Positions 6,092 to 45,059 of a DNA stretch of 64,000 nucleotides are shown one piece after another. The DNA is from a virus. The translations under genes were made by a program, and so were the position numbers. The first letter of the stretch is position 1, and every line of letters begins with the position of its first letter. Location of the stretch: the IMG/VR virus record IMGVR_UViG_3300025128_005882, positions 13,568-77,567 of that record; one strand, 5' to 3'. The notes under the pieces are model-generated. The model saw nothing but the letters and a program-made list of their open reading frames with translations. It searched no databases and was not told the origin of the DNA.

Positions 6092-6813
6092 GAGAACGAG
6101 CACTCCAAGTGGGCAAAAAATGTATTTGGATTTTGATATGGTCTAGTCATTACGTTTTTAGTGAAAACATCTAATGGAGATCCTACATCTATATATGTGT
6201 TGTTTGGATTGCTTTCGTATAGCTTGTCCACCATAATGTTTGCCATAGGCCCAGCAGATACTAAGAACAGTGTGTCCTTATGGCGCTTAGAAATATCTTT
6301 AATCATAGCTAGTATCTCTAGCTTATAACTGTTATACCATTCAATACATTCTTCTGAAACCCAAAGAGCATCAACTACGTTAAATGGATACTTCTTATCA
6401 TACCCTTTTTCGTTCGCTATTAACACTACATCTCTTTCTAATTTCATTAAATATGTAGCAAATTTTCTGAAGTTGGCATTTACCAGAAGATTGGCGAATA
6501 GAACATTGTTATTAGTTATCATATCTAAATACTTGTTCTTGTTTTCTTCTCCGTGGCAGCAAACGCATGGGATTCCGTAGAAGAAATTATCTTCAGTGCG
6601 ATTCAAAGAATTTCTCAAGTCTTTGGCAAAAACACCTGCATTACCATCAGTGTGCCAACCATCTATCTCGTAGGCTTGTGTATCCTTTCCTATTTCCCGA
6701 CCTTCTATAATCGCAAGCTCCCCATCTCCATATCTTGACAAGGAAAAGTTATCGCCAGAAGCTATCTTATCTATAATAAAGTCTACCTGATCTCTAAACT
6801 GTAAGTTTATCAT
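6088..6813 (-). CDS. GT-D fold (DUF1792-like) glycosyltransferase
   Basis: LSRYGDGE, VSAGPMA, IDVGSPLD. Confidence 0.7.
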   Translation of the reverse strand: MINLQFRDQVDFIIDKIASGDNFSLSRYGDGELAIIEGREIGKDTQAYEIDGWHTDGNAGVFAKDLRNSLNRTEDNFFYGIPCVCCHGEENKNKYLDMITNNNVLFANLLVNANFRKFATYLMKLERDVVLIANEKGYDKKYPFNVVDALWVSEECIEWYNSYKLEILAMIKDISKRHKDTLFLVSAGPMANIMVDKLYESNPNNTYIDVGSPLDVFTKNVMTRPYQNPNTFFAHLECSFS

Positions 6814-7559
6814 ACTTCTTCCTTAATTATCTGATAGCCTCTATCTCGAATATAATTCCAGTACTTGTTCATACCTTGATTATTGACATTATTCTTAGAT
6901 ATGGCGTTATCATCTTCCCCTATGCTGTGCCCAGTCTCTGGTTGAGATCCCCACATTTCTCTATCGTCTTTAGGGTGCGGAGGAACATAGCTGTGTAGCC
7001 CCAAATGCTTCTTTACTGCATACGAAAGATGCATGTCTTCACCAAAGTGGTGAGGCGCTGGAATTGGAGCTTCGCCCCAAAAGAATCTTAGCCAATCAGT
7101 CTCGAAAAACCAAGAGTGACATAGCATATCGACTCTTTCTACCTCTTCGTTTGGGCTTCCCCATCCGTGAGTTTCGTATCCATTGTAGGGGTAGTTACGA
7201 TCATCTTCTGGGTTCATTACGACGCCTCTCGTTCCTAGCGGCCCTCTGTGACTTTCCATAGTCATCAGGCAGTTTTCAAGCCACTTTCTGCCGGGAATTG
7301 TATCGTCATCTATGATGTTGACATACTTGGTGCTAGCATTAAGCGCTAGCGCAAATCTACCCCATACACCATAGTTACTATTTGACATTGTTGACTCGCA
7401 GGCCTGCACTACATCTTTTGGAAAATCTTGCATTTCACCATCAGGGCTATTAGTCCATAGCCATACATCTACATCATCAACTGTTTGATTTTTTATAGCC
7501 TCATATTGCTGCTTAAGCGCGTGAGCCCTTTTGTATCCGCTTAGTATAACAGTTATCAT
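6810..7559 (-). CDS. GT2-like glycosyltransferase
   Basis: IIDDDTIPG, GEDMHLSY. Confidence 0.75.
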   Translation of the reverse strand: MITVILSGYKRAHALKQQYEAIKNQTVDDVDVWLWTNSPDGEMQDFPKDVVQACESTMSNSNYGVWGRFALALNASTKYVNIIDDDTIPGRKWLENCLMTMESHRGPLGTRGVVMNPEDDRNYPYNGYETHGWGSPNEEVERVDMLCHSWFFETDWLRFFWGEAPIPAPHHFGEDMHLSYAVKKHLGLHSYVPPHPKDDREMWGSQPETGHSIGEDDNAISKNNVNNQGMNKYWNYIRDRGYQIIKEEV

Positions 7560-15224: not shown

Positions 15225-16796
15225 CTAAATCTCAAAAATATTACTAACAATAAAAGAATTATCTTGTTCTGATACACTACCCGAGAATAGTAGATTATTA
15301 CCCTCATATAACTGGTACTGAAATTTATCTCTACATTCTGGGAATACAATTACACTATCTAAGGAACATGTTTCGTCTTCTATAGTTAAGAATGACATAT
15401 ACTTACCTTTTGACTTGCCCTTCTTTATCTTATAGTCAGACACTCTTTTTATATTGCCGGCGAGCATTAAGCTCTTGCCCTTCTTTCCCTCCAGCACTTC
15501 TTTGCAGGTACTGTTCGCGCCTGATGTGTCGGCAGTCTCTACCTTAGACATGCTAATTGGACAGCCAAGATACTTAACTTCTTGACCTATGACCCAAGAT
15601 GGATCGTCTGAAAGGTCATACGGAGGATTATTCAAGAAATATATCTCATTCTGTATTAGCTGACTTCGTTCTATCTTGCTAGTACCTCCACCTTCTTTCT
15701 TCGTTGGCGCGAGGTCTATAAGGCATTTCTCTAGCGTCGTCCATCTTTTCTTAGGATAGTTTTCTACGACCCACCTAAGCTCTGCGGCTGTCAAAGACCT
15801 GAATATTTCGTATTGATATAGTGCTTCATTTCTTGTAATTCTATCTCTAAAGCCACGAAAAAACCCTACTGACGCTAACGCTTTGAACGCAGTTGAATTT
15901 ATCTTCTTTGACATATATACCAATACGTCCATCCACTTTAAATTTTCTGCATCCTTGCCTAGCTCATCAAGCAACTCGTCTACAGCAAGCAGAACTTTGT
16001 CCCCAGTTTTACCAGTCAGCGACTTAATGTCTTTTACGCCAAAGTATAGATTGCCTTTTCTCATGCAAAACTTTTCTGAGAAGTTAGATATATTTGGTGT
16101 CTTGGTTTCTATGTTGAATAGCTTAGCGTCACTAACCAGCTCATATATCTCTTCGTGGGGATCTTGCTTTTCACCCGCATGGTACAGATAGGACAGGAAG
16201 AACTCCTGCGTATTGTTGGCCTTGTGAAACGCGCTCCAATATGAACACATAGCATATGCTACAGCATGAGACTTGTTGAAAGAGTACCTGCTAGACTTCT
16301 CAATCCAGCTAAATATTTCGTCCGCTGTTGCTTCATCAACTGTACCTAGCTTCTTGCAACCCTTCACGAAATCCTTCTTGACTTTTGCCATCAAGTCGGC
16401 CTTCTTTTTACCAATAGCTTTTCTGAGGACGTCAGCTTCTTTTAGGTCAAACCCAGCCAGATTTTGTGCGATCCTCATGGACTGCTCTTGGTAGACTAAA
16501 ACGCCGTATGTGGGTTTCAGAACATCCTTCAGCGATTCGTGTAGATAGCTAACCTCTTCTACGCCATGTTTTCTGTCAATGTATCTCTGCGTCATTGACT
16601 TACCGTCAGAAATCGCTTTCAGACATCCCGGCCTGATAAGAGCAACAAGAGCTGCAAGTTCTTCTATGTTGCTTGGCTTTAGCTTCTTAGACCAAGACTT
16701 ACCAAGATTGCTTTCAAGCTGGAAGACACCTTTAGTTTTGCCTTCATGAAACAGCTCCCAAGTTTTCTCACACTTGTAGTTAATTTCTCTAGACAT
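15225..16796 (-). CDS. dnaE: DNA polymerase III alpha, C-terminal half (fingers, HhH, OB)
   Basis: GVFQLES, ALIRPG, TYGVLVYQEQ, ADVLRKAIGKK, YSFNKSHAVAY, MSFLTIED; likely start MSREINY. Confidence 0.92.
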   Translation of the reverse strand: MSREINYKCEKTWELFHEGKTKGVFQLESNLGKSWSKKLKPSNIEELAALVALIRPGCLKAISDGKSMTQRYIDRKHGVEEVSYLHESLKDVLKPTYGVLVYQEQSMRIAQNLAGFDLKEADVLRKAIGKKKADLMAKVKKDFVKGCKKLGTVDEATADEIFSWIEKSSRYSFNKSHAVAYAMCSYWSAFHKANNTQEFFLSYLYHAGEKQDPHEEIYELVSDAKLFNIETKTPNISNFSEKFCMRKGNLYFGVKDIKSLTGKTGDKVLLAVDELLDELGKDAENLKWMDVLVYMSKKINSTAFKALASVGFFRGFRDRITRNEALYQYEIFRSLTAAELRWVVENYPKKRWTTLEKCLIDLAPTKKEGGGTSKIERSQLIQNEIYFLNNPPYDLSDDPSWVIGQEVKYLGCPISMSKVETADTSGANSTCKEVLEGKKGKSLMLAGNIKRVSDYKIKKGKSKGKYMSFLTIEDETCSLDSVIVFPECRDKFQYQLYEGNNLLFSGSVSEQDNSFIVSNIFEI

Positions 16797-17466
16797 ATAG
16801 TTCGCCGTCTGCAAATGCTTTATCAATAGTCAAGTTTCTATATACAGCTCTATGTGTCTTCATGAATTTAATCATGATATTGGCTGTATCTTTAACGTCT
16901 TGCAGTGCATCGTGAGCATTTTCTTTGCTAAGACCCATTCTATCTCTCAATGAATCCATGCTAATAGACTTTATTGATGGGTCTCCTTCTGTCCACATAA
17001 ACATATTATCCATCATGTCTACTTTATAGATCTTATTAAAAAGCTTTTGCTGCTGTCTTTCTTTGTCGTATGGGCCGTATGCTTTACATAGTCTATCTAC
17101 GATAATCATATCAAACCCAATGATATTAAACCCAGCTGGGATTGGAGCAAAGAACTGCGTCCCCTTCCAGTTGTGCTGATTGACAAAATCACAGAACTTT
17201 TTCCATACAGTTTTTGGTAGTGGAGCTTTCGCTAGATCTTCTCTATTCTTACCAGTGATGCGAAGCGCTTCATCCTCTAATGGATCGAAGCCCATTTCAA
17301 TAGCTTTTTCGTCGTCCAAGACTGGTCGAATCTCGCTATTAAAAGTACCTTTCAGCTTAAAGTTCCTGCCGTCTAGCGCCAGCGCCGCAATCTGAGTGGG
17401 CTGCGTCTTGCGTGGGTTTCTACTTCCAGTTTCAAAGTCAAATACGATATAGTCTCTAATTGCCAT
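16789..17466 (-). CDS. DEDDh 3'-5' exonuclease (epsilon/DnaQ-like)
   Basis: FDFETG (ExoI), GFNIIGFD (ExoII), AHDALQDV (ExoIII). Confidence 0.9.
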   Translation of the reverse strand: MAIRDYIVFDFETGSRNPRKTQPTQIAALALDGRNFKLKGTFNSEIRPVLDDEKAIEMGFDPLEDEALRITGKNREDLAKAPLPKTVWKKFCDFVNQHNWKGTQFFAPIPAGFNIIGFDMIIVDRLCKAYGPYDKERQQQKLFNKIYKVDMMDNMFMWTEGDPSIKSISMDSLRDRMGLSKENAHDALQDVKDTANIMIKFMKTHRAVYRNLTIDKAFADGELYV

Positions 17467-19090
17467 CTAATACTTCCTCAATTTTCATAATCTTATCTAG
17501 TAAGTTAATTCCTAGTACGTCAAACTTTACGTGGCCTAGAGCTTCAAGATCAGCCATTTCTAGCCCTGCAATCTTTTCGCCTCCACTCCTTTGGTCTACC
17601 ATTGGGCAAACCTCGTGTAATCTATCTGAAGATATAACAACGCCAGCGGCGTGCTTACCTTGGGTTTTGAATGTGCCTTCTAAACTAATTGCCTGATCAA
17701 AATAATCTGCGTAGTCTCCTTCAAGGTAGCCAGAGTCGTTCACAAAGCAATAGTCTCGCAACTCTTCTGAGTTATTAATAAGAGCAAATCTAATGATAGA
17801 ACGATCTTCCTCGTCCATAGCTTGTAGTTGGTCGGATACGTCGGCTTCGTTAGGTATGCACTTTGATATTACATTCATTTCGCCAAACGAACACGCCTCG
17901 TTGATGCGTAATACTTCTTTCAGTGCGCTCCTACCTTGCAGTCTACCAAACGTGAGCATCTGACTCACATTATCTTTGCCATATTTGCTTTTAAGGTAGT
18001 CAATAATTTCATCTCTTTTCCTGCCGGGAACGTCGATGTCAATATCAGGTAGTGATACGTGGCCTCCTGTGTTTCTACCGGCGTTATAGAATCGCTCAAA
18101 TAGCAGGTCATACTCGATTGGGTCGATCTTGGTGATACCAATTAGATATGAAATCAAGCAACCCGCCGCAGATCCTCTTCCCGGCCCTGATAGCCAACCA
18201 GAGTCGTTTACGAAATTAATAATATCTCTAACAATTAAGAAGTATCCAAATAGATGAGCGTCGTTGATAACATCGAATTCCGTCTTGAATCTATCCAGAT
18301 ACTTTTGTTTCATGTCTTCTTCAGCAACCTTCCCAGTTTTTATAAGAAGGTCTCTCCAGCCCTCACGACATAGCTGTTTTAGATAATCTTCTTCAGACTC
18401 GCCTGTTGGTGTGGGAAACTCAGGCAACATTGGAGAACTAAGAATGTCATACTCCTCGCATTTGTCTACAATTTGTTTAACATTCATATCCAAGTCCTCA
18501 GTCAGTATTTCACATACTTCTGTAGAGTCAGGAAGATAGAAGGTGTTTTGCTCAAAGAATTCTCTATTATCAAAATCTTCGTGCTTCGATAACAGTTTAT
18601 TTATCTTAGGTACTGTCGTCTTCATTTTAGAACATAGTAGTATTCTATGCAGAGGTGCGTCCTCTTTATTTGTGTAATATGTTTCCATGAGTGCTGGCGT
18701 TCGTTTGTAGAAGTCCTCGCCCTTGATTGGCGAGTAGCCAGCTTTGTCTGCCACAGATATGAGGTTGCCTTTTGATGTGACCTTTAGCAAAAACTTTTTA
18801 TCATAGTTGCCTTCTTCGTCTAGCGAGGACACAAGTTTAATTAGATCTAGCCATCCGTCTTTGTTTTTGGCGAATAGCGTGAATGTGTCGAACGTGCAGC
18901 CAATGATTGGCTTAATGCCGTTGCTTTTGCAGGCCATAAAGAAGCTGACTGCGCCTGAGATAGATTTATAATCAGCGATGCCACAAGCTTTGTAGCCGTT
19001 AGCCTTGCATTTCTCTGCTAACTGCTGTGGCTTTGAATATCCTTTTAGCAAGCTGTAGTGCGTATAGTTGCACAGTGGAGCCCATTCCAT
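17456..19090 (-). CDS. dnaE: DNA polymerase III alpha, N-terminal half (degenerate PHP + palm/thumb)
   Basis: GPGRGSAAG, LLFERF, LPDIDID, GKHAAGVVI, VKFDVLG. Confidence 0.92.
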   Translation of the reverse strand: MEWAPLCNYTHYSLLKGYSKPQQLAEKCKANGYKACGIADYKSISGAVSFFMACKSNGIKPIIGCTFDTFTLFAKNKDGWLDLIKLVSSLDEEGNYDKKFLLKVTSKGNLISVADKAGYSPIKGEDFYKRTPALMETYYTNKEDAPLHRILLCSKMKTTVPKINKLLSKHEDFDNREFFEQNTFYLPDSTEVCEILTEDLDMNVKQIVDKCEEYDILSSPMLPEFPTPTGESEEDYLKQLCREGWRDLLIKTGKVAEEDMKQKYLDRFKTEFDVINDAHLFGYFLIVRDIINFVNDSGWLSGPGRGSAAGCLISYLIGITKIDPIEYDLLFERFYNAGRNTGGHVSLPDIDIDVPGRKRDEIIDYLKSKYGKDNVSQMLTFGRLQGRSALKEVLRINEACSFGEMNVISKCIPNEADVSDQLQAMDEEDRSIIRFALINNSEELRDYCFVNDSGYLEGDYADYFDQAISLEGTFKTQGKHAAGVVISSDRLHEVCPMVDQRSGGEKIAGLEMADLEALGHVKFDVLGINLLDKIMKIEEVLDGN

Positions 19091-19190: not shown

Positions 19191-19202
19191 TATTATATTA
19201 TA
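19191..19202 (-). promoter_or_regulatory. putative -10-type promoter element TATAATATAATA upstream of dnaE
   Basis: Tandem TATAAT; similar AT-rich elements at about 39721-39735 and 47640-47650. Confidence 0.45.
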
Positions 19203-19224
19203 GTCAAATCAAGCGTATAAAACA

Positions 19225-19539: not shown

Positions 19540-20751
19540 TTAAGAAAATAGATCAGTAATCACTTTTCCTGAATTAGCTATTTTCATGGGTCTTCCGCTT
19601 TTGCTCGTAAATGTAGTGGTCAAGGATATACCAAGAGCTTTACATACAGATGCCATAATGTCTTGCGAACTATGGGGCTCTGTTTCAACTCGCGTGCCGT
19701 CTGAGTTGGTTTCACCGATGGCAATTCCACCGTTCATGCCAGCTCCTCCAACAGCGACGCTCCAGCTTCGTGCCCAGTGGTCACGGCCAGCGTTTTGGTT
19801 GATACGAGGTGTGCGACTAAATTCACCCATCCAGATTATAGCTGTATCCTCCAATAACCCTCTTTGCTCTAAATCCTCAACTAATGCGCTCATGCCTTTG
19901 TCTAACATGGGCAACTTATTGTCTCTTAATGTTGGGAATATATTCTGGTGATTATCCCAGCCTCCCAAATTGACTTCTATAAATGGGACTCCAACCTCAA
20001 CAAGCCGTCTAGCCATTAAGCATGACTTGCCGAAGTTGTTGTCTCCATATCTATCTTTAACCGCCTCGGGTTCACCTGCCACTTTGAACGCTTCCATTTG
20101 TTCACTAGTCAGCAAATTGAACGCTTGCCTGAGTACGTCTCTGTGGTCGCTAGCTATTGAGCCTCTCTTTTGATTTATAAAACCATTTTCTATAACATCT
20201 AAAGCATAGGCTCTTTGAAAGAACCTTTGGTCTGGTTTGACATCTAGGTTACGAACTTGGCCATTGCTGTTAACTACAAACGGCGCATGATTCATACCTA
20301 GAAAACCAGCTCCAATACTTCCTCCACCTACAGAAACAAACTGCGGAATTTCTAGATTTTCTCGTCTTAGCTGATGCGATAAAACGGCACCATAGCTAGG
20401 ATGCTCAATACTTGGGTTGGGAACATATCCAGTGTGCATGTAATATCGCCCACGCATGTGGTCAGCTTCACGAGTACTCATGGATCGGACAATGGCCATG
20501 TGATGCATTTGCTTTGCCATCAAAGGCATATGTTCGCAAATCTCCACATCTCCCGTTGTGGATATTGGTCTAAATGGCCCGCCTGTCGGCGCTTCTGGCT
20601 TTAAGTCCCAAATATCCATGGTCGAAGGGCCACCACCCATCCATAATAATATAGCTGATTTATTTTTTTTCCTCAGCTCGTCAGCGTTTGCGCTTAATAG
20701 TTCTACGAGGGGAAGTGAAGAAAATCCTGCTAAAAAACTTCGTCTATTCAT
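19540..20751 (-). CDS. DUF1501 family protein
   Basis: RRSFL, LWMGGGPSTMDIWDLKP, ARRLVEVGV, GGWDNH, GEFSRTPRIN..GRDHW. Confidence 0.92.
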   Translation of the reverse strand: MNRRSFLAGFSSLPLVELLSANADELRKKNKSAILLWMGGGPSTMDIWDLKPEAPTGGPFRPISTTGDVEICEHMPLMAKQMHHMAIVRSMSTREADHMRGRYYMHTGYVPNPSIEHPSYGAVLSHQLRRENLEIPQFVSVGGGSIGAGFLGMNHAPFVVNSNGQVRNLDVKPDQRFFQRAYALDVIENGFINQKRGSIASDHRDVLRQAFNLLTSEQMEAFKVAGEPEAVKDRYGDNNFGKSCLMARRLVEVGVPFIEVNLGGWDNHQNIFPTLRDNKLPMLDKGMSALVEDLEQRGLLEDTAIIWMGEFSRTPRINQNAGRDHWARSWSVAVGGAGMNGGIAIGETNSDGTRVETEPHSSQDIMASVCKALGISLTTTFTSKSGRPMKIANSGKVITDLFS

Positions 20752-25148: not shown

Positions 25149-26162
25149 TTATCCCGGAGCCTCATAGTGGCCCACGCTAAATCCTTTGGCGGTGCATCTT
25201 TTTACGGTTTCATTCATTCCGTGCTTTTTAAGGTGCTCCTCTGTATATATACACATATTTTGGTCTGTTCCCGGCCAGTTGTTCTTATAAAAATGACAAA
25301 GCTTATTGCACTTCCAATGTTTTCTTGAGTAAGACATTGGCTTTGGCTCTTGATTTCTGCTGATCTGCTGAAATCTTAGCTTTAACATCTCCAAAAACTT
25401 TTCTTGGTCTTTCTTGTCAAAGCACATCGAGAAAGGCCCGCCATCTCTAATATAGAATATCGTCATGATTGACTGCTCATAATCAGGAAATAGTTTTGAT
25501 ATTGCGTAATTATATAGTAATAATTGGGGGTCTGAACATAGCTTCTCATATGTCTTCTCTTCGCCCGTTGCCCAGTCAAGCCTTCTTCCTGTTTTCCAGT
25601 CAACGACTTCAATTATACCATCGTCTACCTCAGTTACAAGATCTATCGTACCTTTTATTGCCAAGTTCCCTGTAATTTTTTGTCCATCGGGCATTTCGTA
25701 GTCGAACTTAGCCCAATCTTCTTCTATCTCAATATCAAAGTGTGGCTCAGCGGCAACAATCTTTCTGTTTCTGGGATCAAAAATCCCATTATTATATTCA
25801 ATCGCTTCCCAAGTCAACTCTTTGCAGAATTTATAATCTGACTTAGTATACTTATGAGTGCAGTTACTAGTGTACCAATCAAAACTTTGCTGCAAAATAT
25901 CGTTTACAAAATCCTCACTTTTTAGTTTTTTGCGGTTAAACTTTATATCGCCAAGCGCATCGTCAGCAAGTAGCATCTTCTTGCTATCCTGCTGTAGGTG
26001 TTGACAACCCGCTAGCACCTCCATAACTTTGTGAACCACAGTCCCAAGCTGAGCTTTTTTGCCAGAGGTGGATTGGTGGCCAAGCACGTAAGTCAGAAAA
26101 TATTGCATCTGACAATACGAGTAGTTATTAAAACTTGAACTTCTTATGTAAGTCACTAACAT
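25149..26162 (-). CDS. PD-(D/E)XK exonuclease (Cas4/AddB-like)
   Basis: LGTVVH, KGTIDLV, VVDWKTG, QLLLY, N- and C-terminal Cys. Confidence 0.85.
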   Translation of the reverse strand: MLVTYIRSSSFNNYSYCQMQYFLTYVLGHQSTSGKKAQLGTVVHKVMEVLAGCQHLQQDSKKMLLADDALGDIKFNRKKLKSEDFVNDILQQSFDWYTSNCTHKYTKSDYKFCKELTWEAIEYNNGIFDPRNRKIVAAEPHFDIEIEEDWAKFDYEMPDGQKITGNLAIKGTIDLVTEVDDGIIEVVDWKTGRRLDWATGEEKTYEKLCSDPQLLLYNYAISKLFPDYEQSIMTIFYIRDGGPFSMCFDKKDQEKFLEMLKLRFQQISRNQEPKPMSYSRKHWKCNKLCHFYKNNWPGTDQNMCIYTEEHLKKHGMNETVKRCTAKGFSVGHYEAPG

Positions 26163-26908
26163 GTGATCTCCAGTTCGCTATAAATTTTAGCCAGAGCATT
26201 AAACAGACTAGTCATGTCTGTATTATTGACCACGTAGTCAAAGTTGCTCCAGTCGTAGTTTTCTTTATCAAGAGCGTTTTCACTTGAGTGACTATCCTGA
26301 GTAAACTCTCTAGTCAATCTTATTACTTTGCCTCCAGCATCCTTTATTGATTCTACCTCGTTCGGAAATCTCACATCCGCTATTATGGCTAAGTCACTCT
26401 TTTCTCTGGTTATAGTTTTGATTGCATATTCTACCCAAACATTGTTGTACATCTTCCTCATAATGTCAGTTCCAAAGTACTGCAATAATTCTCTTGAGGT
26501 CATTGCTCCTCTATTCTTATTAAGGCTGCTATTACTCCAAGTCGGAACGTCCTCCCATAGGACTTTTGTCTGCGTGTTCTTATCGTCTTCGGTGCCATAT
26601 ACTTGGCTTCTAGTGAGACCGAAGAACTCCATACACAACAATTTTAAGCCGTCAGCAAAGCTGTATAATTTTACATGGGGCCACATATTATAATTAGCAT
26701 ATTCAACAAAAGAAGAATCTTTTCTGGTGACATCTAAAAGTCCATACTCCTCATCTCCTTCAATGTCTGTTTTAATTACAAGCGCGCCATTGTTGTCGAT
26801 ATTAAAATCTTCTACCATGCCCATTTTCTTTAATACTAGCCCGTGAAGGTAGTTTGCGGCGGTGTTTTTGCCAGCTTGTTTCTTTCCAGATATTCCAATT
26901 ATATTCAT
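26156..26908 (-). CDS. deoxynucleoside monophosphate kinase
   Basis: GISGKKQAGKNT, FADGLK, RELLQYFGT, DVRFPNE, HSSE. Confidence 0.88.
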   Translation of the reverse strand: MNIIGISGKKQAGKNTAANYLHGLVLKKMGMVEDFNIDNNGALVIKTDIEGDEEYGLLDVTRKDSSFVEYANYNMWPHVKLYSFADGLKLLCMEFFGLTRSQVYGTEDDKNTQTKVLWEDVPTWSNSSLNKNRGAMTSRELLQYFGTDIMRKMYNNVWVEYAIKTITREKSDLAIIADVRFPNEVESIKDAGGKVIRLTREFTQDSHSSENALDKENYDWSNFDYVVNNTDMTSLFNALAKIYSELEITC

Positions 26909-27924
26909 TAATACATACCTTTTAGTTGCGGTAACACGTTTGTTTTTATATCTTCTACAGACATATCTCCAACATCTTTTCTAGATAGTCTTGGAAATAC
27001 GACTTTGAACATTCTGCTCATGTCCCTTTGTATTTTCATCTTCGCTTCTCTTCCGGCTTGATCGTTGTCAGTAAGAACAACCAGCTTTGTAATGCCACTT
27101 TTTTCAAGTATCGACTTCTGCACTGGACTTACTGATTTGCCAAATATACTTATGGCGTTTTTAACGCCAGCTTCGTAAAGTTTCCAAACATCCCCTTGGC
27201 CTTCAGTTATAAATAAACAAGACTTTTCTTGCGCTTTTTGTATAGCTCTATGATAATTGTAAAGGTATTTGTTTTTATTGAACCCTCTAGTAAAAAGAAA
27301 CTTGGGCTTCAAAAAACTCTGCATTGACCTACCTATGTAGGCCACAACCTTTTCACCATTCAGCGAGTGTACTGGTATAATGGCTCTGGACACCATAGAA
27401 GATTTCTTCTGCACACAGTCGCCCACTTGGAAATGAAGCAATGTAGAGTCTGCAAAGCCTCTTGACTGAAAGTAATCTGAGGGATGCATAACGTTACAAT
27501 CTATCCGAACTTCCTGATCGTCGTAGGAGGGGACGTCCTCTTTGGAGAACATCTTGACCATAGAGACAAACTGGTCATCCTCTTCTTGCTTTTCTACATG
27601 CACAGACTTATTATCTATATTCAATATTTTACAAGCCCATTTAAGTGCGCCGCTAAAACCTACGTCAGACTCTGCCTCAACAGATAAGACTCCTCTTATG
27701 AGTCCAAATATGTCATTGCCAAATTCTTGCTGGCATCCTCTAGTCCAACAGCTCCAGATATGCCTATCAGAATTGTAGGAAAAACTGTTTGGGTTATCAC
27801 TGTCTTCATGTACTGGGCAAGAACAAGTTATATTCTGTCCATTCTTTTGATAGTCTATTTCTAGCTCTGAAAATACCAACTCAAGATTATTCCCAAGGAG
27901 CTTTTTGATCTTCTTCAAGTCCAT
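26908..27924 (-). CDS. dnaG: DNA primase (Zn finger + TOPRIM)
   Basis: CPVHED..SF..C..C; TEGQGDV; LTDND.AG. Confidence 0.88.
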   Translation of the reverse strand: MDLKKIKKLLGNNLELVFSELEIDYQKNGQNITCSCPVHEDSDNPNSFSYNSDRHIWSCWTRGCQQEFGNDIFGLIRGVLSVEAESDVGFSGALKWACKILNIDNKSVHVEKQEEDDQFVSMVKMFSKEDVPSYDDQEVRIDCNVMHPSDYFQSRGFADSTLLHFQVGDCVQKKSSMVSRAIIPVHSLNGEKVVAYIGRSMQSFLKPKFLFTRGFNKNKYLYNYHRAIQKAQEKSCLFITEGQGDVWKLYEAGVKNAISIFGKSVSPVQKSILEKSGITKLVVLTDNDQAGREAKMKIQRDMSRMFKVVFPRLSRKDVGDMSVEDIKTNVLPQLKGMY

Positions 27925-29377
27925 CCTCTTCTACCTCCTCGTTAACATTATCTAAGTTTTCAACATCTATTAAACCAGTATCTTCTGATGGCATCACAAG
28001 AAATTCATTTCTAGTTCTTAGCTCTTGCAGTTTTGCATGTTCGCCAAGCATCCGCATATTGATGTAGTCTCCGTCGTCTAAACCTGCGCCATGTCTTGAG
28101 ACAATGGGAACAAGCTTCCTGTTCCCTGCTCTTGGGCCGTCTTCAGCCAGCTCCTCTGGCGATTTTATTTTAAATATGGAGAATGATGTACATAACCAAA
28201 TAAGTCTGTCAGAACCGCTTACAGCATCGGTGGACTCTTTTGTAATACCGTCTCTGTTTAATTGCACAAACGATAGGCAGGGGAAGTCGTACTTGACAGC
28301 CAAGTTATGAAGGTTTGTTATTTGAAAACCGAGAGCTTGATATTCTTGTATATTATTTGTTATTGATGTAGAAGACATAAGTTTTAAATAGTCATAAACA
28401 ACTACACAATCATTTGTTCTTCCATTTTCATCTTGTTTTACATCTTGTATAATCCAGCGTTTAATAATATTTAGTATCTGCTCAAATGGTTTGCCCGCAA
28501 CACTGACGTAGTTATAAGGTATGTCTTGTATCTGTTCAACAGCTTCGTGAACTCTCTGACTCTTCTCGTCGTCATCTACAAACTTACCAGTAGCTACTTC
28601 GTTGATCGGAACTCCGCTTAGGTTGGCTATGATTCTGTTAAGATGATCCTCTTTTGACATTTCAGTATCTAGAACCAATACTGGTGTTCCTTCTCTTGCT
28701 ACGTTGACGGCAACATTGTCTGCAAAAACACTTTTACCGACCTTTGGTCTAGCGGCTACCAGATCTACGCATTTTCTTCTTAGTCCACCGCCTATTGCTA
28801 TATCGTATCTTGGAAACCCCGTTGGTACGCCTATAACATCACACTTATTCTCAGATAAGTATTCAATGTAATCTGTTATATCTTTGCCAATCTTCTCAGG
28901 CTTTTCTCCTCCATCGTCCTCCCTGAGAAAATCCATTACAGGCTCTTCTAGTTTCTGGATAATTTCGTCGATAGTCTCGCTACCGTTGATTTTGTCTACG
29001 TCTTTGTGTATCTTGTCTGTTAGTTTTTTAATCTTGCGAGCAAACTCAAACTTCTTTATCTGTACAGCGAAATTAAAAATGTTGTCTTGACTTACTGGAA
29101 AATCAAAAAGAGACTTTATGTATTCAAGCTCTGATTTGGACTCTACTCGTTCTGAGTGCCCAAGTCTTGATGCCGCAGATAATACAGATGGGAGATCAAC
29201 GTCAAGATTGTTTTCAATTACATCTTTTACGCAAGTAAACAAAACTTGATTATTAGGAATACCAAATGTGTAGCTATCAACAATATCAGCAACTTCAACA
29301 TAAGCATCTATGCCATGCTGAAATAATCCAGCAAGCAAAGCTCTTTCTGCTCCAGCGTCTGTTAAATGTTGTTCCAT
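27887..29377 (-). CDS. dnaB: replicative DNA helicase
   Basis: AARPKVGKS, DTEMS, VYDYLKLM, VQLNR, SRHG. Confidence 0.9.
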   Translation of the reverse strand: MEQHLTDAGAERALLAGLFQHGIDAYVEVADIVDSYTFGIPNNQVLFTCVKDVIENNLDVDLPSVLSAASRLGHSERVESKSELEYIKSLFDFPVSQDNIFNFAVQIKKFEFARKIKKLTDKIHKDVDKINGSETIDEIIQKLEEPVMDFLREDDGGEKPEKIGKDITDYIEYLSENKCDVIGVPTGFPRYDIAIGGGLRRKCVDLVAARPKVGKSVFADNVAVNVAREGTPVLVLDTEMSKEDHLNRIIANLSGVPINEVATGKFVDDDEKSQRVHEAVEQIQDIPYNYVSVAGKPFEQILNIIKRWIIQDVKQDENGRTNDCVVVYDYLKLMSSTSITNNIQEYQALGFQITNLHNLAVKYDFPCLSFVQLNRDGITKESTDAVSGSDRLIWLCTSFSIFKIKSPEELAEDGPRAGNRKLVPIVSRHGAGLDDGDYINMRMLGEHAKLQELRTRNEFLVMPSEDTGLIDVENLDNVNEEVEEDGLEEDQKAPWE

Positions 29378-29379
29378 CA

Positions 29380-29733
29380 CTACCTCCCTATACACCTATC
29401 GCAGCGCCAGAATTCTCCGCTGATTAAGCTAGGGTGTACCGAAAATACTTTGCCACATACGTGACACTTCTTTTCAACCTTGTGCGCTTTTTTCCTGTTT
29501 CTTGGAGTTGGCTCAATATCTGGAGTATCAATGTCTTTGTGTTCACCGTTGTCGCTCCAAGTATTCTTTCTAGCCTTTACAGTTTCTCTTCTCGGCCCTG
29601 ATTCTTTTCGCTGCACTCTGAAGTTACTGTCTACTGAAACATCCTCATCATCGGCAACGCTCTCTTGCACTTCTTCTTGTTTTTTAGCAAGTAGCTTTTG
29701 CAGCTCCTCTATGCTTAAATCTTCTGGATTCAT
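29380..29733 (-). CDS. hypothetical Zn-ribbon protein
   Basis: CHVC...CDRC. Confidence 0.55.
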   Translation of the reverse strand: MNPEDLSIEELQKLLAKKQEEVQESVADDEDVSVDSNFRVQRKESGPRRETVKARKNTWSDNGEHKDIDTPDIEPTPRNRKKAHKVEKKCHVCGKVFSVHPSLISGEFWRCDRCIGR

Positions 29734-30212
29734 AGTCTTTTAGCCCTTTCTAGCAAGATGTCGCCCTGACGCTTCAGTTCGTAAACCTTGCCCTCTAATG
29801 ATTGTAACCTTGATTCCGCAACCAATCTCATTTGATCTACACTTGCGGCATAGCTATTTTCACGTATGATGATTTGTCTTTTTACGTCGTGTTTAGTATA
29901 CTGATCAAAGTTATTTAAGTTTGCTGCGACCAGCTTTTCTATTTGGTCATTGCACCAACTCAGGGCAACCTTGTTCTTGTTGATTTCATCTTGGATATAA
30001 GTAGAATACCCATACAGCAAATATGCTGAATCAAACATTTCTTGAGATGTCATTTTTGACATATCGCCCGTGGTCAAATTAGAGGCCACGATATACTCTA
30101 CATTAAAAGAAGAATAAGAAACATTGGACATAGCTATGTATTCATCTATGCCTTTTATGTGTTCTGCTAATCTTTCAGATGCCTTTAATTGTGTTTCTCC
30201 ACTCATCGTCAT
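29730..30212 (-). CDS. helical protein, possibly a UvsY-like recombination mediator
   Basis: Coiled-coil character, size and position near recA. Confidence 0.4.
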   Translation of the reverse strand: MTMSGETQLKASERLAEHIKGIDEYIAMSNVSYSSFNVEYIVASNLTTGDMSKMTSQEMFDSAYLLYGYSTYIQDEINKNKVALSWCNDQIEKLVAANLNNFDQYTKHDVKRQIIIRENSYAASVDQMRLVAESRLQSLEGKVYELKRQGDILLERAKRL

Positions 30213-30597
30213 TCTCCGAATATTTCAATGTAACTAATTCAATATCGTTAAGTTCACACCACTCTATCTTGTCTTCATCTCTAGCCTTTGCAAGCAGAAA
30301 GTCTGCCTTGGTTGTATGGAAGAATGGTATGTGTTCGTAATGTTGCCTCCCGTGCACCTCAAAAGCTTTCCGTATGTTAGGAATAAAAAAATCTAAATAC
30401 AATACAGAACGCTTGTTTGTTGAGGTACTTCCGGGAAGCTTTACTTCTTCAAGAAGTCTGTAGCTATGATAAATCTCCTTAATAAGATGTCTGGCTCTGA
30501 TATGGTGTTTTGATCTTTTGCGGGTATCATTAGCCTTGACATCATACTTGGAGAGATTCAAATTGTACTCTCTACCATTGAAGCCTGTTACTTTCAA
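30175..30597 (-). CDS. Vsr/DUF559-like endonuclease
   Basis: LYLDFFIP, FEVHGRQHY, RDEDKIEWC. Confidence 0.7.
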   Translation of the reverse strand: MKVTGFNGREYNLNLSKYDVKANDTRKRSKHHIRARHLIKEIYHSYRLLEEVKLPGSTSTNKRSVLYLDFFIPNIRKAFEVHGRQHYEHIPFFHTTKADFLLAKARDEDKIEWCELNDIELVTLKYSENDDEWRNTIKGI

Positions 30598-31700
30598 AAC
30601 AGCTCCTTAATTTTCTCGTATATAAAGTCGCAAACTTGTGGATTTTCGTTTAGGAATTCTGTAAGGTTGTTAACGCCTTGAAACTTGAAGAACCTTTCAA
30701 TATCTTCTTCTTTCTCGCCCACCTCATTCGATCCTAGTAGTTTAGCTATGACTGGCTCTTCCTTCTCGTCAATAGCACACTGAATAGTGTACCAAGCTCC
30801 AGCAGTCTTTATCAACCTAAACTCACAAGCTATCTGCACTACCTCTTGTACCTCGTCTATGCCTATGCCATATCTAATCCAGCTCTCGGCAGTAGAGTTT
30901 GGTATACCTCCGGCGTTTGAGGTTTTAATATTCCAGTTTGCGATTTGTCCTACGTGTGGCCCAGTCTGTGCAGGAACCTGCCATTTTCCACGATGTGTGA
31001 TAATCATATTTGTTCCGGCTTGATATTGCAACATATTACCGCAGTCTGCCATTTTCATTGGCGCGTATCTACTACCGCTAGTATTGGCGATATTGTGAGT
31101 GATGCAGATAATAATTGTTTTGTTCTTCGTGACAGAGCCGCCAATGCGCTTAAAGAACATTGATAGGAGCCTTGGTAATGCGTTGCGAACTCCAGTTCTG
31201 ACCTCTCCCTCAAGTTCAATTTTAGGAACCATATTGGACATAGAGTCAACGATAATAACACACTCTGGATCATTATTGATATAGTATTCAATAATATTCA
31301 AGAAGTCTTCTGCTGATAAAACTCTATCATCTGTAGACTCTACGATTAGTATCTTGTCTGGGTCTAGCCCTTTGATGCCTTCAAAGTTTTGCTTAGCTAG
31401 ACGACCCTCCGTGTTGGCGTAGATAATCTTCTTGCCTAACTTTTGACACTTGGCGGCAAAGCATAAAGCTGTTGTTGTCTTCCCACTCTTGGGGTCGCCT
31501 GTCATAACTACACAGCTACCCTCTCTTAAGCCACCTCCTAGCGCTATATCCAACGCTGGAGACAATCCAATTACCTGTAGGTTGTTAAGATTGCTGAGGA
31601 CTTCTGATCCCGTTCTTACCACGTCGCCATAAGTAGAGACGACGGTGCTGCTGACTACGTCTTCAACAAATTTACTTGTCTTCTTCTTTCTTGCCATCAA
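30594..31700 (-). CDS. recA: RecA/UvsX recombinase
   Basis: LDIALGGG, GDPKSGKTT, IIVDS, YGIGID, AGAWY. Confidence 0.9.
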   Translation of the reverse strand: MMARKKKTSKFVEDVVSSTVVSTYGDVVRTGSEVLSNLNNLQVIGLSPALDIALGGGLREGSCVVMTGDPKSGKTTTALCFAAKCQKLGKKIIYANTEGRLAKQNFEGIKGLDPDKILIVESTDDRVLSAEDFLNIIEYYINNDPECVIIVDSMSNMVPKIELEGEVRTGVRNALPRLLSMFFKRIGGSVTKNKTIIICITHNIANTSGSRYAPMKMADCGNMLQYQAGTNMIITHRGKWQVPAQTGPHVGQIANWNIKTSNAGGIPNSTAESWIRYGIGIDEVQEVVQIACEFRLIKTAGAWYTIQCAIDEKEEPVIAKLLGSNEVGEKEEDIERFFKFQGVNNLTEFLNENPQVCDFIYEKIKELF

Positions 31701-32124
31701 TATCTCTCAATCTTTTCAAACTGTTTTTCTTACCGTAGGATGAAGACCGAGACTTCGGCTTATCCTGTACATCTATTATAGTACGATTACGGTTTTCAGA
31801 CTCAATTATTTTTTGATATTTATCAATTACGCGCTCAATATTTGGATACCGAAGAGAATATACGTTCTTCAGCTCGTTAGAATTTAGGGCTTTAACTATG
31901 GCGGCGCAGTCGTATTTAGATGCCAGCCGATTAGCTAGAATAACTTGGAATGAATAAGTCTTTTTCCACTTGTTAGTGTTCCAAAACTTGTAGGCTTGAG
32001 TGCCTTCATTTTCTTTTTGAGCCATGCGTGTACACATGATTTCAGCTATGTACTGCGAACACGTACAATATTCCCCAGTTGATGGAGAAACATACTTGCT
32101 TTTATCGCTTCGTTCCTTCGCCAT
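31672..32124 (-). CDS. hypothetical protein
   Basis: Coupled ORF in operon. Confidence 0.6.
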   Translation of the reverse strand: MAKERSDKSKYVSPSTGEYCTCSQYIAEIMCTRMAQKENEGTQAYKFWNTNKWKKTYSFQVILANRLASKYDCAAIVKALNSNELKNVYSLRYPNIERVIDKYQKIIESENRNRTIIDVQDKPKSRSSSYGKKNSLKRLRDIDGKKEEDK

Positions 32125-32527
32125 TGTAAATCATCGCCTCTTCAAAACAACCTTCAATAGTATCTTCGTATTCTTTTTCAACAATTAACTCTGGAGTTAA
32201 CCACATCTTTTTATGTACTACTCCGTCAACAAGTGCCCCAGTCGTCAGATAATCTTTAGATCTCTGCCCTATCTGCCCCATTACCGAGCGAACTAGATAT
32301 ACAGCGTCAGCATCAGCAATGTCAACTTCTTCTAAGTGAGACCTAAACTGTAAAGCTAACTTTATAAGCTCCAAACCTTCTGATGAACATATCTGCTTTA
32401 CCTTTAGCCAGTCGTCATAATCAGAAAAGTATATATCTCTGCCGTTAGATAGCTGGACGTTTATAAAAACTTCTTTTTCCCCAGCTCCTCTTATTACCTT
32501 CTTAAATTCCTGTTTTCCTTCTATCAT
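32102..32527 (-). CDS. hypothetical protein
   Basis: Coupled ORF in operon. Confidence 0.6.
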   Translation of the reverse strand: MIEGKQEFKKVIRGAGEKEVFINVQLSNGRDIYFSDYDDWLKVKQICSSEGLELIKLALQFRSHLEEVDIADADAVYLVRSVMGQIGQRSKDYLTTGALVDGVVHKKMWLTPELIVEKEYEDTIEGCFEEAMIYNGEGTKR

Positions 32528-32835
32528 TCTTTCTTAGTTCCTGTAGTACAAGATTGTCTTTTAAGGTCTGCTCTAGTGATTGACTTACCTTTGCCTCTCA
32601 TTTCGTCAGAGATGTTTGAAGCATTTTCTGTCATTATGGTAATGCCATCTTGTCTAGCCATTTGTCCACCCGCCGTATGCATCTCAGGCTCTTTAGCTTT
32701 AGCCTTTTCAATATGCTTAGAAATGGAGTTAACTGGTCTATCCAGCTCCTTTGCTATTTCCTTAGCTTCCATGGATTTGTAGTGTCCCTCGACATAGTAT
32801 TTTTCCGCTTTTCCTAGTGGCCCTTTTTTAGTCAT
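32524..32835 (-). CDS. hypothetical protein with possible HTH
   Basis: AKEIAKELDRPVNSI. Confidence 0.55.
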   Translation of the reverse strand: MTKKGPLGKAEKYYVEGHYKSMEAKEIAKELDRPVNSISKHIEKAKAKEPEMHTAGGQMARQDGITIMTENASNISDEMRGKGKSITRADLKRQSCTTGTKKE

Positions 32836-33175
32836 TTAAAAAGCTCCTTTGTGCTCTTGTTAAATATAATGAATTCTTAGTGTTTAAATATAGCATATAA
32901 AAGTCAAACGTGTTTTTACTCACTCTTGACATTTTTAATTCTATTGCTGATTCTCTATGCGAGTACATTCCATTTGGATCGTACAGACCTCCTTGAAATG
33001 TTTGCGCGTAGTATGATTGCTTTACCTCGCCCTTGTTAAACTTATCAACTATTACCTTAGACATTGGTGTTTCTCGCTTATTCAACACCGGCTCTCCATG
33101 TCTACCAAATAGTTTTTCAGTTTTGGTTTCTTTGTTTACAAACTTATCAACATTAGGGTCTAAGTATTTATTCAT
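32828..33175 (-). CDS. hypothetical protein
   Basis: Coupled ORF in operon. Confidence 0.6.
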   Translation of the reverse strand: MNKYLDPNVDKFVNKETKTEKLFGRHGEPVLNKRETPMSKVIVDKFNKGEVKQSYYAQTFQGGLYDPNGMYSHRESAIELKMSRVSKNTFDFYMLYLNTKNSLYLTRAQRSFLND

Positions 33176-33534
33176 TTCTTGCCTTTCATGATGTAATTAG
33201 TCTTTTGTTCAGGAGTCATTTTGTTTATTTCTGTCTTATTGGCTGTAGCGTGCTTACCCCACACATTCGTTTGCTCTTTGGCGGCTTGTTTTTCCTTTAC
33301 CTTTGTTTCCATTTCCGACCTTTTGTAGTGTCCCATCTTTTTTGTGTTCCTGTCAGCAAGCTGACCTATTGTTGAAACATTTTCTACGAAAGCCGCGCGG
33401 CCACCAAAGATTACTCTAGCTAGGGCGTGCTCACCACATTCTTCGCACAAAGTTAATGGGTCGTCTTTAATAGATTGTAGCACGTTTTTGACTTCGTGTC
33501 CACAGCTTTTACAAACATAGTCATAATTAATCAT
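33172..33534 (-). CDS. FmdB-family zinc-ribbon protein
   Basis: YDYVCKSCGH..Q..DDPLTLCEECG. Confidence 0.8.
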   Translation of the reverse strand: MINYDYVCKSCGHEVKNVLQSIKDDPLTLCEECGEHALARVIFGGRAAFVENVSTIGQLADRNTKKMGHYKRSEMETKVKEKQAAKEQTNVWGKHATANKTEINKMTPEQKTNYIMKGKK

Positions 33535-34201
33535 AGTAATCTTCCTCTAGAGCCTCAAGGACTCTACCAATTATTCCGTTTCTTTGTATGTCTTCATAGT
33601 ATAAGCGGCTAACGCCCACACCCTCTATTCCCTCAAGCTTATCGACACATTCTAGTAGGCCGCTAAACTTTTTTATATCCGTTTGCCGTATATCTCCATT
33701 AATTAAAACCTTAGAGTTCTCACCCATTCTAGTTATAAACATTTTTATTTGTGCTAAAGTACAGTTCTGTGCCTCATCTAGTATCATATACGCTTCATGA
33801 AATGTCGCGCCTCTCATTACTTCAAGTGGTTCATATCTGATTCTACCGTCGTTAAAAAGTTTTCCGTAGTAGTCTCTACCGAGGAAGTGCTTTAGGTTTT
33901 CCTCCATAGGTAGTAAGTACGGTTTAATTTTTTCATCTAGCTCGCCGGGCAGTGATCCAATATCTTGTCCCGCACACACTAACGGTCTAGTCACTATGAT
34001 CTGATCTACTTCATCTCTGTATATATGATTTGCAGCTATGCCTGCGGCAATATAAGATTTACCACTGCCAGAAGGCCCAGTACAAAATATAACATCGTTT
34101 TCTACTATATCTCTAATATAGTCTTTTTGGTTGATAGTCTTAGCTGTTATAGGAACAATTCTTCGTCTATCGTTCTTTTGTTGCTTGCGAGATTTTCTCA
34201 T
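33527..34201 (-). CDS. phoH: PhoH-like ATPase
   Basis: GPSGSGKS, GSLPG, MRGATF, ILDEAQN, GDIRQTD. Confidence 0.92.
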   Translation of the reverse strand: MRKSRKQQKNDRRRIVPITAKTINQKDYIRDIVENDVIFCTGPSGSGKSYIAAGIAANHIYRDEVDQIIVTRPLVCAGQDIGSLPGELDEKIKPYLLPMEENLKHFLGRDYYGKLFNDGRIRYEPLEVMRGATFHEAYMILDEAQNCTLAQIKMFITRMGENSKVLINGDIRQTDIKKFSGLLECVDKLEGIEGVGVSRLYYEDIQRNGIIGRVLEALEEDYYD

Positions 34202-34213
34202 GCGAGCTCCTTT

Positions 34214-34660
34214 TTATTTGCCGGTACTTCCAAATCCTCCCTCACCTCTGTCGGAGTTTTGTAGTATCTCGACTTCTTGTAACTGAAAATGCGGAACCTC
34301 TTGAAATAGAATTTGTGCAATTCTATCACCTTCTTTTATGTTCATCCATTCTCTGCTCGTGTTGAGCAGACATACTTTTATCTCTCCTCTGTATCCAGAA
34401 TCAACAACCCCTGCTAAAACATCTATGCCATTCTTGACCGACATGCCAGAGCGAGGCCATATAAGTCCGACATACTCCTCTGGTATCTCCAAAGAAATGC
34501 CAGTTTTAATCGTAACCCTTTGACTTGGGGCTATTGGTCTAGTTGTAACAGAATATAAATCCCAGCCTGCGTCACTCTGGTTTGACCTAGTTGGTACTAT
34601 AGCTTTTTTTTCCGTCTTCTTTACTCTTATAGTTTTTCCTGCAAATCTTGCGTCTATCAT
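34214..34660 (-). CDS. dut: trimeric dUTPase
   Basis: AGWDL, PRSG, GVVDSGYRGEI, RIAQ, RGEGGFGSTG. Confidence 0.95.
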   Translation of the reverse strand: MIDARFAGKTIRVKKTEKKAIVPTRSNQSDAGWDLYSVTTRPIAPSQRVTIKTGISLEIPEEYVGLIWPRSGMSVKNGIDVLAGVVDSGYRGEIKVCLLNTSREWMNIKEGDRIAQILFQEVPHFQLQEVEILQNSDRGEGGFGSTGK

Positions 34661-37967: not shown

Positions 37968-37988
37968 ATTTATGCTACCTCTAGGTGT

Positions 37989-38026
37989 AAAAAAAACTCG
38001 CCTCAAGCGACATACCTGAAGCGAGT
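37989..38026 (-). terminator. intrinsic terminator-like hairpin in nrdA leader
   Basis: ACUCGCUUCAGG-loop-CUUGAGGCGAGU followed by a U run. Confidence 0.7.
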
Positions 38027-44298: not shown

Positions 44299-45059
44299 AA
44301 TTGAGTTACCAATCCAGATTTCAAAATCATAGACAACCACTTTTTTTCCTTACCTGAGTCATGCCCAACTGTGGTAAAACCTTGAGAATTGCCATTCTTA
44401 CTATAATAATGTTGTGTTTCTAGTCCATCAAAGCCAGTAATGAAAATTTTGTACCCTCTTAGCATGTGATCCTTTTTGCATGAGCAACTGTTGCACGGTT
44501 TATCGTAAGACGTAATACCTGTCGATGCCCGCACTGCGTGAGCTATTGCTTTCAATCCTGCTGTTGCTGATTTATGGTCTTTTGTTTTTGTTTTGTCCCA
44601 GTACAAAAACCGACTTCCGTCTGGGTTATCGAAAAACCCACTGCGGTCGGTAAAAGAGGGATAACATTTCAAAAATTCAAAATTCTTAATGTTAGATTCC
44701 TCAGCTATTCTTTCGACAGTTACAGGGCCAGTCTTCCAATTCTGGTGCTCCATCCTACCTTCCATCCAAGCCTTGGAGTTACAACCCCATACCGTTTCAA
44801 CCGTCTTGACGTAATCGTCATAAGCAAAGCCATTGTCTGCCCACCAATCGCAATTAGGATCGTTTCCTTTTTGTATCATATGTAGCAACTTAGGAAATGC
44901 TGAGTGGCACATTATATCTACTTTGGTTCCTACATGCTTTTCATACCCTGAGATACGAAAATCATTAAACCTTATAACAATGTCAAAATCGTCAATCGCA
45001 TGACCATTTTCACTATTGAGTAAACAACCTCCATTTCCTACTATAATCGCTCGTTTCAT
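44295..45059 (-). CDS. GT29 sialyltransferase-like protein
   Basis: L-motif IVGNGG..G..ID.FD.VIRFN..VGTK; TAG; GFDG..HYY..GH. Confidence 0.75.
   Translation of the reverse strand: MKRAIIVGNGGCLLNSENGHAIDDFDIVIRFNDFRISGYEKHVGTKVDIMCHSAFPKLLHMIQKGNDPNCDWWADNGFAYDDYVKTVETVWGCNSKAWMEGRMEHQNWKTGPVTVERIAEESNIKNFEFLKCYPSFTDRSGFFDNPDGSRFLYWDKTKTKDHKSATAGLKAIAHAVRASTGITSYDKPCNSCSCKKDHMLRGYKIFITGFDGLETQHYYSKNGNSQGFTTVGHDSGKEKKWLSMILKSGLVTQL

Follow-up and report, generated by a model that had tools for sequence, protein, structure and literature searches.

To our knowledge, C-family DNA polymerases are treated as single catalytic chains, and their sole well-known natural split, that of cyanobacteria, is repaired by protein splicing. 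Here we describe a dnaE locus in a 64,000-nucleotide stretch of viral DNA (the window; positions 13,568 to 77,567 of IMG/VR record IMGVR_UViG_3300025128_005882) in which the gene for the polymerase III alpha subunit is present as two genes, an N-half and a C-half, with a gene for a DEDDh 3'-5' exonuclease between them. The source is a 77.6-kilobase (kb) record of an uncultured aquatic phage with a CheckV completeness of about 49%. We consider it likely that the replicase consists of two polymerase chains that reassemble non-covalently together with the exonuclease as proofreader, all three being translated separately, and that the split is old.

Several described systems share features with this locus. 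A study by Dassa et al. (2009, PMC2677866) described 'fractured genes', in which a split intein is combined with a homing endonuclease gene between the pieces. An intein-free split family-B polymerase, gp43A/gp43B, is found in Aeromonas phage 25 (also in 44RR), where according to a review the chains co-purify and are active, and the split NrdA of Aeh1 is a further active intein-free split phage enzyme (PMC2988022). Group 2.2 jumbo phages encode a minimal Pol III alpha module as two stand-alone proteins, and the active enzyme was proposed to form from the pair (Iyer et al. 2021, PMC7824862). In Bacteroidetes DnaE1 an exonuclease domain is at the N-terminus, in the order exonuclease, linker, PHP (Timinskas et al. 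2014, PMC3919608). A search of the literature returned no description of an intein-free dnaE split with an exonuclease gene in the gap.

Nearly all of the window genes are carried on the minus strand, and three consecutive minus-strand open reading frames (ORFs) within positions 15225-19090 encode, in this order, the DnaE N-half, the exonuclease, and the DnaE C-half:

17456-19090, minus strand: dnaE N-half gene, 544 amino acids; PHP, palm, and thumb, with all three catalytic Asp residues (PDIDID and KFD)
16789-17466, minus strand: gene for a DEDDh 3'-5' exonuclease, putative proofreading subunit, 225 amino acids; Pfam RNase_T PF00929, 6.8e-12
15225-16796, minus strand: dnaE C-half gene, 523 amino acids; fingers, helix-hairpin-helix (HhH) region, and C-terminal OB fold

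The N-half matched the Pfam families PHP (PF02811, 5.6e-18, residues 10-98) and DNA_pol3_alpha (PF07733, 8.2e-69), and the C-half matched DNA_pol3_finger (PF17657, 8.1e-50). The HhH (PF14579, 0.0092) and OB (PF01336, 0.0029) matches of the window C-half are weak and both under the cut-off; the two domains are on record for fused relatives, and in the model of one of these, P0004, they appear as helices and a beta barrel. The motifs SLPDIDIDVP and KFDVLG are present in the N-half, which ends 20 residues past the Asp of KFD, and the equivalents of its catalytic Asp residues in P0004 (D344, D346, and D516) are invariant among 99 aligned sequences. The N-half covers positions 206-572 and the C-half positions 574-1052 of the NCBIfam DnaE model NF004226, and thus the two halves make up one complete DnaE; neither reaches the equivalog cut-off of 1002 bits, the scores of 353.7 and 280.3 bits being those of two ORFs and not of one polypeptide. 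The C-half frame is open from 16826, and the protein begins MSREINYKCEKTWELFHEGKTKGVFQLES at an ATG (16796) that is kept in relatives. The PHP domain of the N-half begins with PLCNYTHYSLL (window 19040-19090), as against HLHQHTQFSLL in Taq alpha. It lacks the N-terminal His residues of the PHP metal site, a loss which suggests that the PHP nuclease of the window DnaE is inactive.

The two junctions, read base by base, and the best promoter-like site upstream of the N-half are as follows:

17456-17479, minus strand: junction 1, ATGGCAATTAG, with the 11-nucleotide overlap of N-half and exonuclease at 17456-17466
17473-17479, minus strand: Shine-Dalgarno-like GAGGAAG, followed by a 6-nucleotide spacer
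17464-17466, minus strand: exonuclease ATG
17456-17458, minus strand: N-half stop TAG
16789-16796, minus strand: junction 2, ATGTCTAG, an 8-nucleotide overlap of exonuclease and C-half
16794-16796, minus strand: C-half ATG, in the overlap that ends with the exonuclease stop TAG at 16789-16791
19192-19221, minus strand: candidate promoter-like site TTTATA-18-TATAAT, 10/12 matches

No strong Shine-Dalgarno sequence was found upstream of the C-half ATG at junction 2. A scan of the region for promoters and terminators returned sites in a number at the chance level, and the promoter remains a candidate; no convincing minus-strand terminator was found inside the three-gene block.

The position of the break was examined by comparison with P0004 (1052 amino acids, 57% identity to the N-half), which is colinear across the break with nothing missing or added; in the alignment the N-half ends at its position 536 and the C-half starts at its position 533. 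The AlphaFold2 model of P0004, with a mean predicted local distance difference test score (pLDDT) of 92.6, has the KFDILGI strand at 514-520, a helix at 521-530, a coil at 531-542, and a helix at 543-550, and by this model the break is in the coil that leads from the final elements of the palm into the first helix of the fingers. A HMMER alignment places the break at about residue 644 of Taq alpha (2HPI), shortly past the strand with the third catalytic Asp, a point that we take, from the E. coli and Taq structures, to be the palm/fingers transition. The linker of the fused relatives is equivalent to the N-tail plus the C-head of the split forms, and both N-tails and C-heads are short across clades. 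Pfam detected no intein family in any of the three window proteins, and the break contains no non-coding DNA that could accommodate an intron. RYSFNKSH is intact in the window C-half (residues 181-188 of P0003), and the break is not at the cyanobacterial intein site. The initial annotation, made from the sequence of the window, had claimed that DnaE is split after KFDVLG with the palm Asp motifs all in the N half, that a complete DEDDh exonuclease ORF with overlaps of 11 and 8 nucleotides fills the gap, and that intein motifs are absent and the cyanobacterial site intact; the ORFs, Pfam matches, motifs, and junction bases given above agree with each of these claims. A true split intein is found in the related locus L061, where it lies within the C-half at FNK in the layout of a 'fractured gene':

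L061:5641-8530: FNK/CLDPETV... (N-intein part), a 297-amino-acid Vsr-like endonuclease ORF at 6516-7409, and ...VVSN/SHSVAY

Since this intein was recognised in the same gene, inteins at the break between the N-half and the C-half would have been recognised if they were there.

The arrangement is conserved among relatives. A scan of IMG/VR with the window exonuclease matched 157 contigs, and 80 loci with 70-89% exonuclease identity were fetched. The order N-half, exonuclease, C-half was found in all 79 of the close loci that extend far enough (58-89% identity) and in about 110 related viral and metagenome contigs overall, among them distant loci reached through other queries (exonuclease identity 28-64%, N-half identity 35-59%). 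The N-half stops within 90 nucleotides of the end of the N-half match in 109 of the 115 loci with a complete N-half; L090, one of the remaining six, is likewise split, and N-half-only database proteins that carry inteins elsewhere end 12-32 residues past KFDxLG. The junction between N-half and exonuclease varies from overlaps of 1-19 nucleotides through abutment to gaps of 1-26 nucleotides, with every frame relation represented. This gap is 171-679 nucleotides in many relatives, and gaps of 320-656 nucleotides occur between exonuclease and C-half. The large gaps are filled by complete same-strand genes that encode FkbM-like methyltransferases, glycosyltransferase-like proteins, an HNH protein, Cys-rich EndoVII-like proteins, and a 163-amino-acid nuclease-like, PD-(D/E)XK-like protein. 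When the window was compared with its nearest relatives, the nonsynonymous divergence (dN) was 0.07-0.26 for all three genes, among which the exonuclease showed the strongest conservation; synonymous sites (dS) were saturated, which precluded dN/dS ratios. Judged from this sequence comparison, all three genes are under strong purifying selection.

Searches were also made outside the uncultured viruses. A DNA-level search of cultured phages gave no match, and protein-level matches in cultured isolates were at most 34% identical and in one piece or differently interrupted, with no cultured member of the group in that collection. A scan of genome contigs with the exonuclease returned two short weak matches in one Lachnospiraceae metagenome-assembled genome and no clue to the host. 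The DnaE of Bacillus phage vB_BceM_WH1 (L151:3402-7600) is annotated as three coding sequences, gp235-237, with unannotated gaps of 725 and 404 nucleotides at positions other than that of the window break; this is a different kind of interruption, and the gaps may be introns.

Extra genes in the junction gaps were observed in L018, L019, L022, L027, L031, L032, L034, L036, L058, L059, and L080; they occur at both junctions, and several are of the homing-endonuclease type. Several split clades have a conserved gene of about 75 amino acids between the N-half and the exonuclease, with the motif G[VL]S[IL]C...YQVH...KF[FL]E, and another split clade has a different conserved ORF of about 60 amino acids with an SCC motif in the same gap:

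L093:7705-7926, L130:3586-3816, L090:6319-6543, L128:5088-5303, and also L155-L160: gene of about 75 amino acids
L095:11868-12053, L099:11859-12035, L107:11860-12039, L113:11934-12128: SCC ORF of about 60 amino acids

A hidden Markov model search for the former gene gave no match either in the window or within the clade closest to it. The place of this gene in the fused locus L128 is directly upstream of the exonuclease gene, as if the pair moves together. In the deeper split clades (L095, L099, L102, L107, L113, L116, and L126) the head of the C-half has 20-30 additional residues with F-x-CGC followed by a further Cys, as in MTINFECGCCF...FRCPKTW; the window clade and the fused forms lack this head, which may be a small metal-binding element. 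Inserts are also found within the halves themselves. An insert of about 1.27 kb occupies the L061 intein site in L080 and L128/L129, and some relatives have inserts of 0.3-1.2 kb, near residues 306 and 345 of the N-half or near residue 65 of the C-half, which may be inteins, introns, or endonuclease genes. The further inserts are:

L080:1695-2925
L089:2626-3782
L016:5855-6618 (L142 is the same contig)
L150:5350-5626

The residues D10, E12, D119, H185, and D190 of the exonuclease form an invariant DEDDh pentad; no other column is invariant when 107 family members are aligned. A sequence search of the PDB gave marginal matches; the DnaQ-like fold was seen by structure search, in which the best solved-structure matches of the AlphaFold2 model (pLDDT 96.4) were the ExoI N-domain, the DinG exonuclease, a DnaQ domain, RNase T, and the PolC exonuclease, with template modelling (TM) scores of about 0.65; the Foldseek probability was 1.00 for the ExoI, DnaQ-domain, RNase T, and PolC exonuclease structures. 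The protein also matched PHROG 192, 'DNA polymerase exonuclease subunit' (3.1e-23). PolC models were weakly matched, and the exonuclease is a separate ORF after the palm and not inside the PHP domain, a difference from PolC that the initial annotation had rightly pointed out. The exonuclease family is small, with 564 clusters in a set of 1.84 billion representatives; the 150 best-matching of the 564 have lengths of 107-282 amino acids, and none of these 150 is a fusion with a polymerase. The exonuclease and DnaE trees are congruent, and in every arrangement of the clade the exonuclease gene is beside or near dnaE. Neither PolA nor PolB nor a beta clamp was detected among the genes of the 77.6-kb record. 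The linkage to dnaE, the congruent trees, the PHP domain that lacks the N-terminal His motif, and the lack of another polymerase among the genes found all point to a proofreading subunit that would do the job of epsilon.

The locus can now be compared with the known systems. The single-chain DnaE with separate epsilon of E. coli (2HNH/5FKU) and T. aquaticus (2HPI) has the same domain order (PHP-palm-thumb-fingers-HhH-OB), the Asp triad, and a stand-alone DEDDh exonuclease, whereas in the window the chain is cut in the post-palm coil with the exonuclease gene in the cut, and the exonuclease scores below the epsilon cut-offs. The sister uncultured phages (P0004-P0054; L084, L127, L128, L152) also share the domain order and have DnaE in one piece. 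In the cyanobacterial split DnaE and the fractured genes dnaE is likewise in two genes, and the fractured genes also have an intervening gene; however, the window break is at another site, FNKSH is intact, intein parts are lacking, and the intervening gene encodes the proposed functional partner of the polymerase and not a homing endonuclease. The gp43A/gp43B enzyme is, like that of the window, an intein-free two-chain phage replicative polymerase with a mobile endonuclease or other DNA between its genes, but it belongs to family B, its distribution is narrow, and the intervening DNA is an untranslated spacer or a seg endonuclease and not a proofreader. The proofreader of gp43 is a domain of the polymerase chain. 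The split Pol III alpha of the jumbo phages is also a phage-encoded C-family catalytic module in two proteins; it consists of the catalytic core only, without PHP, is encoded by genes that are far apart, and occurs alongside a family-B polymerase, whereas the window has the full DnaE architecture, adjacent genes, and no PolB found in the record. PolC and Bacteroidetes DnaE1 resemble the window in that a DEDDh proofreader is closely tied to a C-family polymerase. In PolC the exonuclease is within the PHP domain of the same chain, while in the window the tie is at the gene level only, between palm and fingers and with no covalent fusion. The exonuclease-linker-PHP order of Bacteroidetes DnaE1 is mirrored by the gene order, exonuclease then dnaE, of two fused clades (B and C).

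These fused clades were found in a search for longer proteins, which returned many viral one-piece DnaE proteins that are 37-57% identical to the N-half. The exonuclease gene is 2 kb downstream of dnaE in clade A (P0049, L127) and directly upstream of dnaE in clade B (L084-L089, L128/129) and clade C (P0004-6; L152-154). Trees based on the N-half columns (FastTree, 136 rows; IQ-TREE LG+G4, 92 and 95 rows) show a single viral clade in which the backbone is split and the fused forms make up three separate nested clades. Clade C is sister to the split loci L130-133, and both together are sister to the window split clade with 99% support in the Shimodaira-Hasegawa-like approximate likelihood ratio test (SH-aLRT). 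The approximately unbiased (AU) test rejects the grouping of all fused forms in one clade (p = 2e-4) and the placement of all split forms on one side of a branch (p = 1e-5), both groups having been named only after the tree was seen. When the tree is rooted with bacteria, parsimony favours a single old split and three later re-fusions; a history of repeated insertions at this one coil calls for many more events. From these trees, the split state, with the exonuclease gene enclosed, is probably an old feature of the viral DnaE clade, and one-piece genes probably re-arose at least three times with the exonuclease outside each time. The description of the exonuclease gene as 'inserted' between the halves is consequently not established, as the trees fit an old split and several re-fusions better. 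More tentatively, and at somewhat less than even confidence, we suggest that the replicase gene switched between two-piece and one-piece forms at least three times in one clade, with the split form ancestral and re-fusion recurrent, and that the exonuclease gene, sometimes together with the gene of about 75 amino acids, moved inside or outside dnaE each time. Junction genes of the homing-endonuclease type may drive these exchanges.

A three-chain assembly is the most likely product of the locus because there are two separate polymerase proteins with nothing to splice them. In the proposed mechanism the three cistrons are probably co-transcribed and would be translated separately, with translation in the window probably coupled through the 11- and 8-nucleotide overlaps. 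Chain 1 would supply PHP, palm, and thumb and chain 2 would supply fingers, HhH, and OB, with the cut in a surface coil; the two would associate through native palm-fingers contacts, and the exonuclease would join the complex in place of epsilon. Such coupling, which the initial annotation had proposed, is plausible for the window, yet its loss in many relatives means that it cannot be essential. The initial annotation had set separately made chains beside a second alternative, frameshifting that yields a single Pol-Exo-Pol chain. This would take programmed frameshifting or hopping at both overlaps, and the product would be PolC-like with the exonuclease at a new place. The overlaps in the window are such that two frame changes would give a continuous chain. 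However, the relatives show all junction frames, many have gaps of 170-680 nucleotides that hold complete unrelated genes with their own stops, the exonuclease has its own ATG and GAGGAAG Shine-Dalgarno sequence, no Pol-Exo-Pol fusion is present among the best 150 of the 564 clusters, and the natural fused relatives join N-half to C-half directly without the exonuclease. Because junction frames vary and large gaps hold complete genes, both the double frameshift as the normal mode of expression and an assembly artefact are excluded, and of the two alternatives it is the separately made chains that are supported; we regard the single frameshifted chain as extremely improbable. It is hardly conceivable that the split reflects an assembly or sequencing error or a decaying pseudogene. 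The window does come from one metagenomic contig, but the comparison of split and fused homologous loci that had been recommended as a check gave the same break in about 110 independent contigs from many samples as well as the three fused clades, and the halves are separated by a complete conserved gene and not by an indel, with strong purifying selection on all three genes. A further possibility is post-translational ligation of the halves through a device that escaped recognition, for example a tag system or a split intein that is very short or unusual. Split inteins are used elsewhere in dnaE of the same lineage (L061; cf. Dassa et al. 2009, PMC2677866), and a CGC...C motif heads the C-half in the deep split clades; we nevertheless judge such ligation very improbable, since the window clade has about 8-10 N-tail residues past the conserved helix and about 10 residues before the conserved W, these short ends align with the linker of the fused relatives, known split-intein parts need about 88-105 and about 35 residues (PMC2677866), and neither a conserved Cys/Ser/Thr at +1 nor an HN motif is present.

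The remaining alternative accepts the three separate genes as real but takes the exonuclease to act in some other role, such as recombination, repair, or host-DNA degradation, and not as a proofreader, its place in the locus being a matter of gene-order history. The fold matches to generic DEDDh enzymes (ExoI, RNase T, and the DinG exonuclease) would fit this explanation, as would the low scores against the NCBIfam dnaQ models and the exonuclease homologues in Bacteroides phages, which adjoin terminase, ligase, and DnaB genes and not dnaE; the Bacteroides phages SJC03 and DAC had been considered as further cases of the split and were ruled out, as the homologue is not next to any DnaE piece. 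We consider this explanation unlikely, because across the whole clade the exonuclease gene co-diverges with dnaE and lies either within it, directly upstream, or no more than 2 kb away, the annotation of PHROG 192 is that of a polymerase exonuclease subunit, and the window PHP lacks the N-terminal His motif of Taq, so that another proofreader is expected. Returning to the replicase of two polymerase chains and a proofreader, several points weigh against it. The assembly of the chains, their activity, and the proofreading role are what we infer from genes. The exonuclease is no nearer in structure to epsilon than to the ExoI, RNase T, and DinG exonuclease domains, and it lies far below the cut-offs of the NCBIfam dnaQ models (TIGR01406, 20.1 bits versus 222.7; NF004316, 15.8 versus 196), so that the case for proofreading is made by the linkage of the genes and the name of the PHROG. 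The record covers only about half of a genome, and the other part could encode another polymerase. We likewise infer the direction of evolution, because the root is placed on the long branch to the bacterial outgroup and gene conversion between co-infecting phages could also have played a part.

A very large group of aquatic phages thus appears to replicate with a Pol III alpha whose two parts, divided between palm and fingers, remain separate. Should the complex be active, the palm-fingers connection is dispensable, the natural split and fused pairs with 55-60% identity would be suited to the study of enzyme assembly and proofreader docking, and the break would be a possible split point for the engineering of two-part C-family polymerases. 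If the recurrent switching is true, the clade is a rare natural series for the reversible fission and fusion of a polymerase gene. In annotation, such genes are easily mistaken for truncated dnaE or for dnaE pseudogenes.

The three genes are part of a region with other replication genes. DUF1501 genes also lie upstream of the block, and an FkbM methyltransferase and glycosyltransferases are encoded downstream. Some of the window cargo is unusual for a phage, namely a DUF1501 protein, a membrane dipeptidase M19 domain protein, and a radical SAM protein. The positions of these features are:

25149-38006, minus strand: upstream replication and nucleotide module with NrdA, NrdB, PhoH, RecA-like protein, DnaB, DnaG-type primase, deoxynucleoside monophosphate kinase, and PD-(D/E)XK nuclease
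19540-20751: DUF1501 protein (7e-104)
56844-58124: membrane dipeptidase M19 domain protein
42985-44340: radical SAM protein

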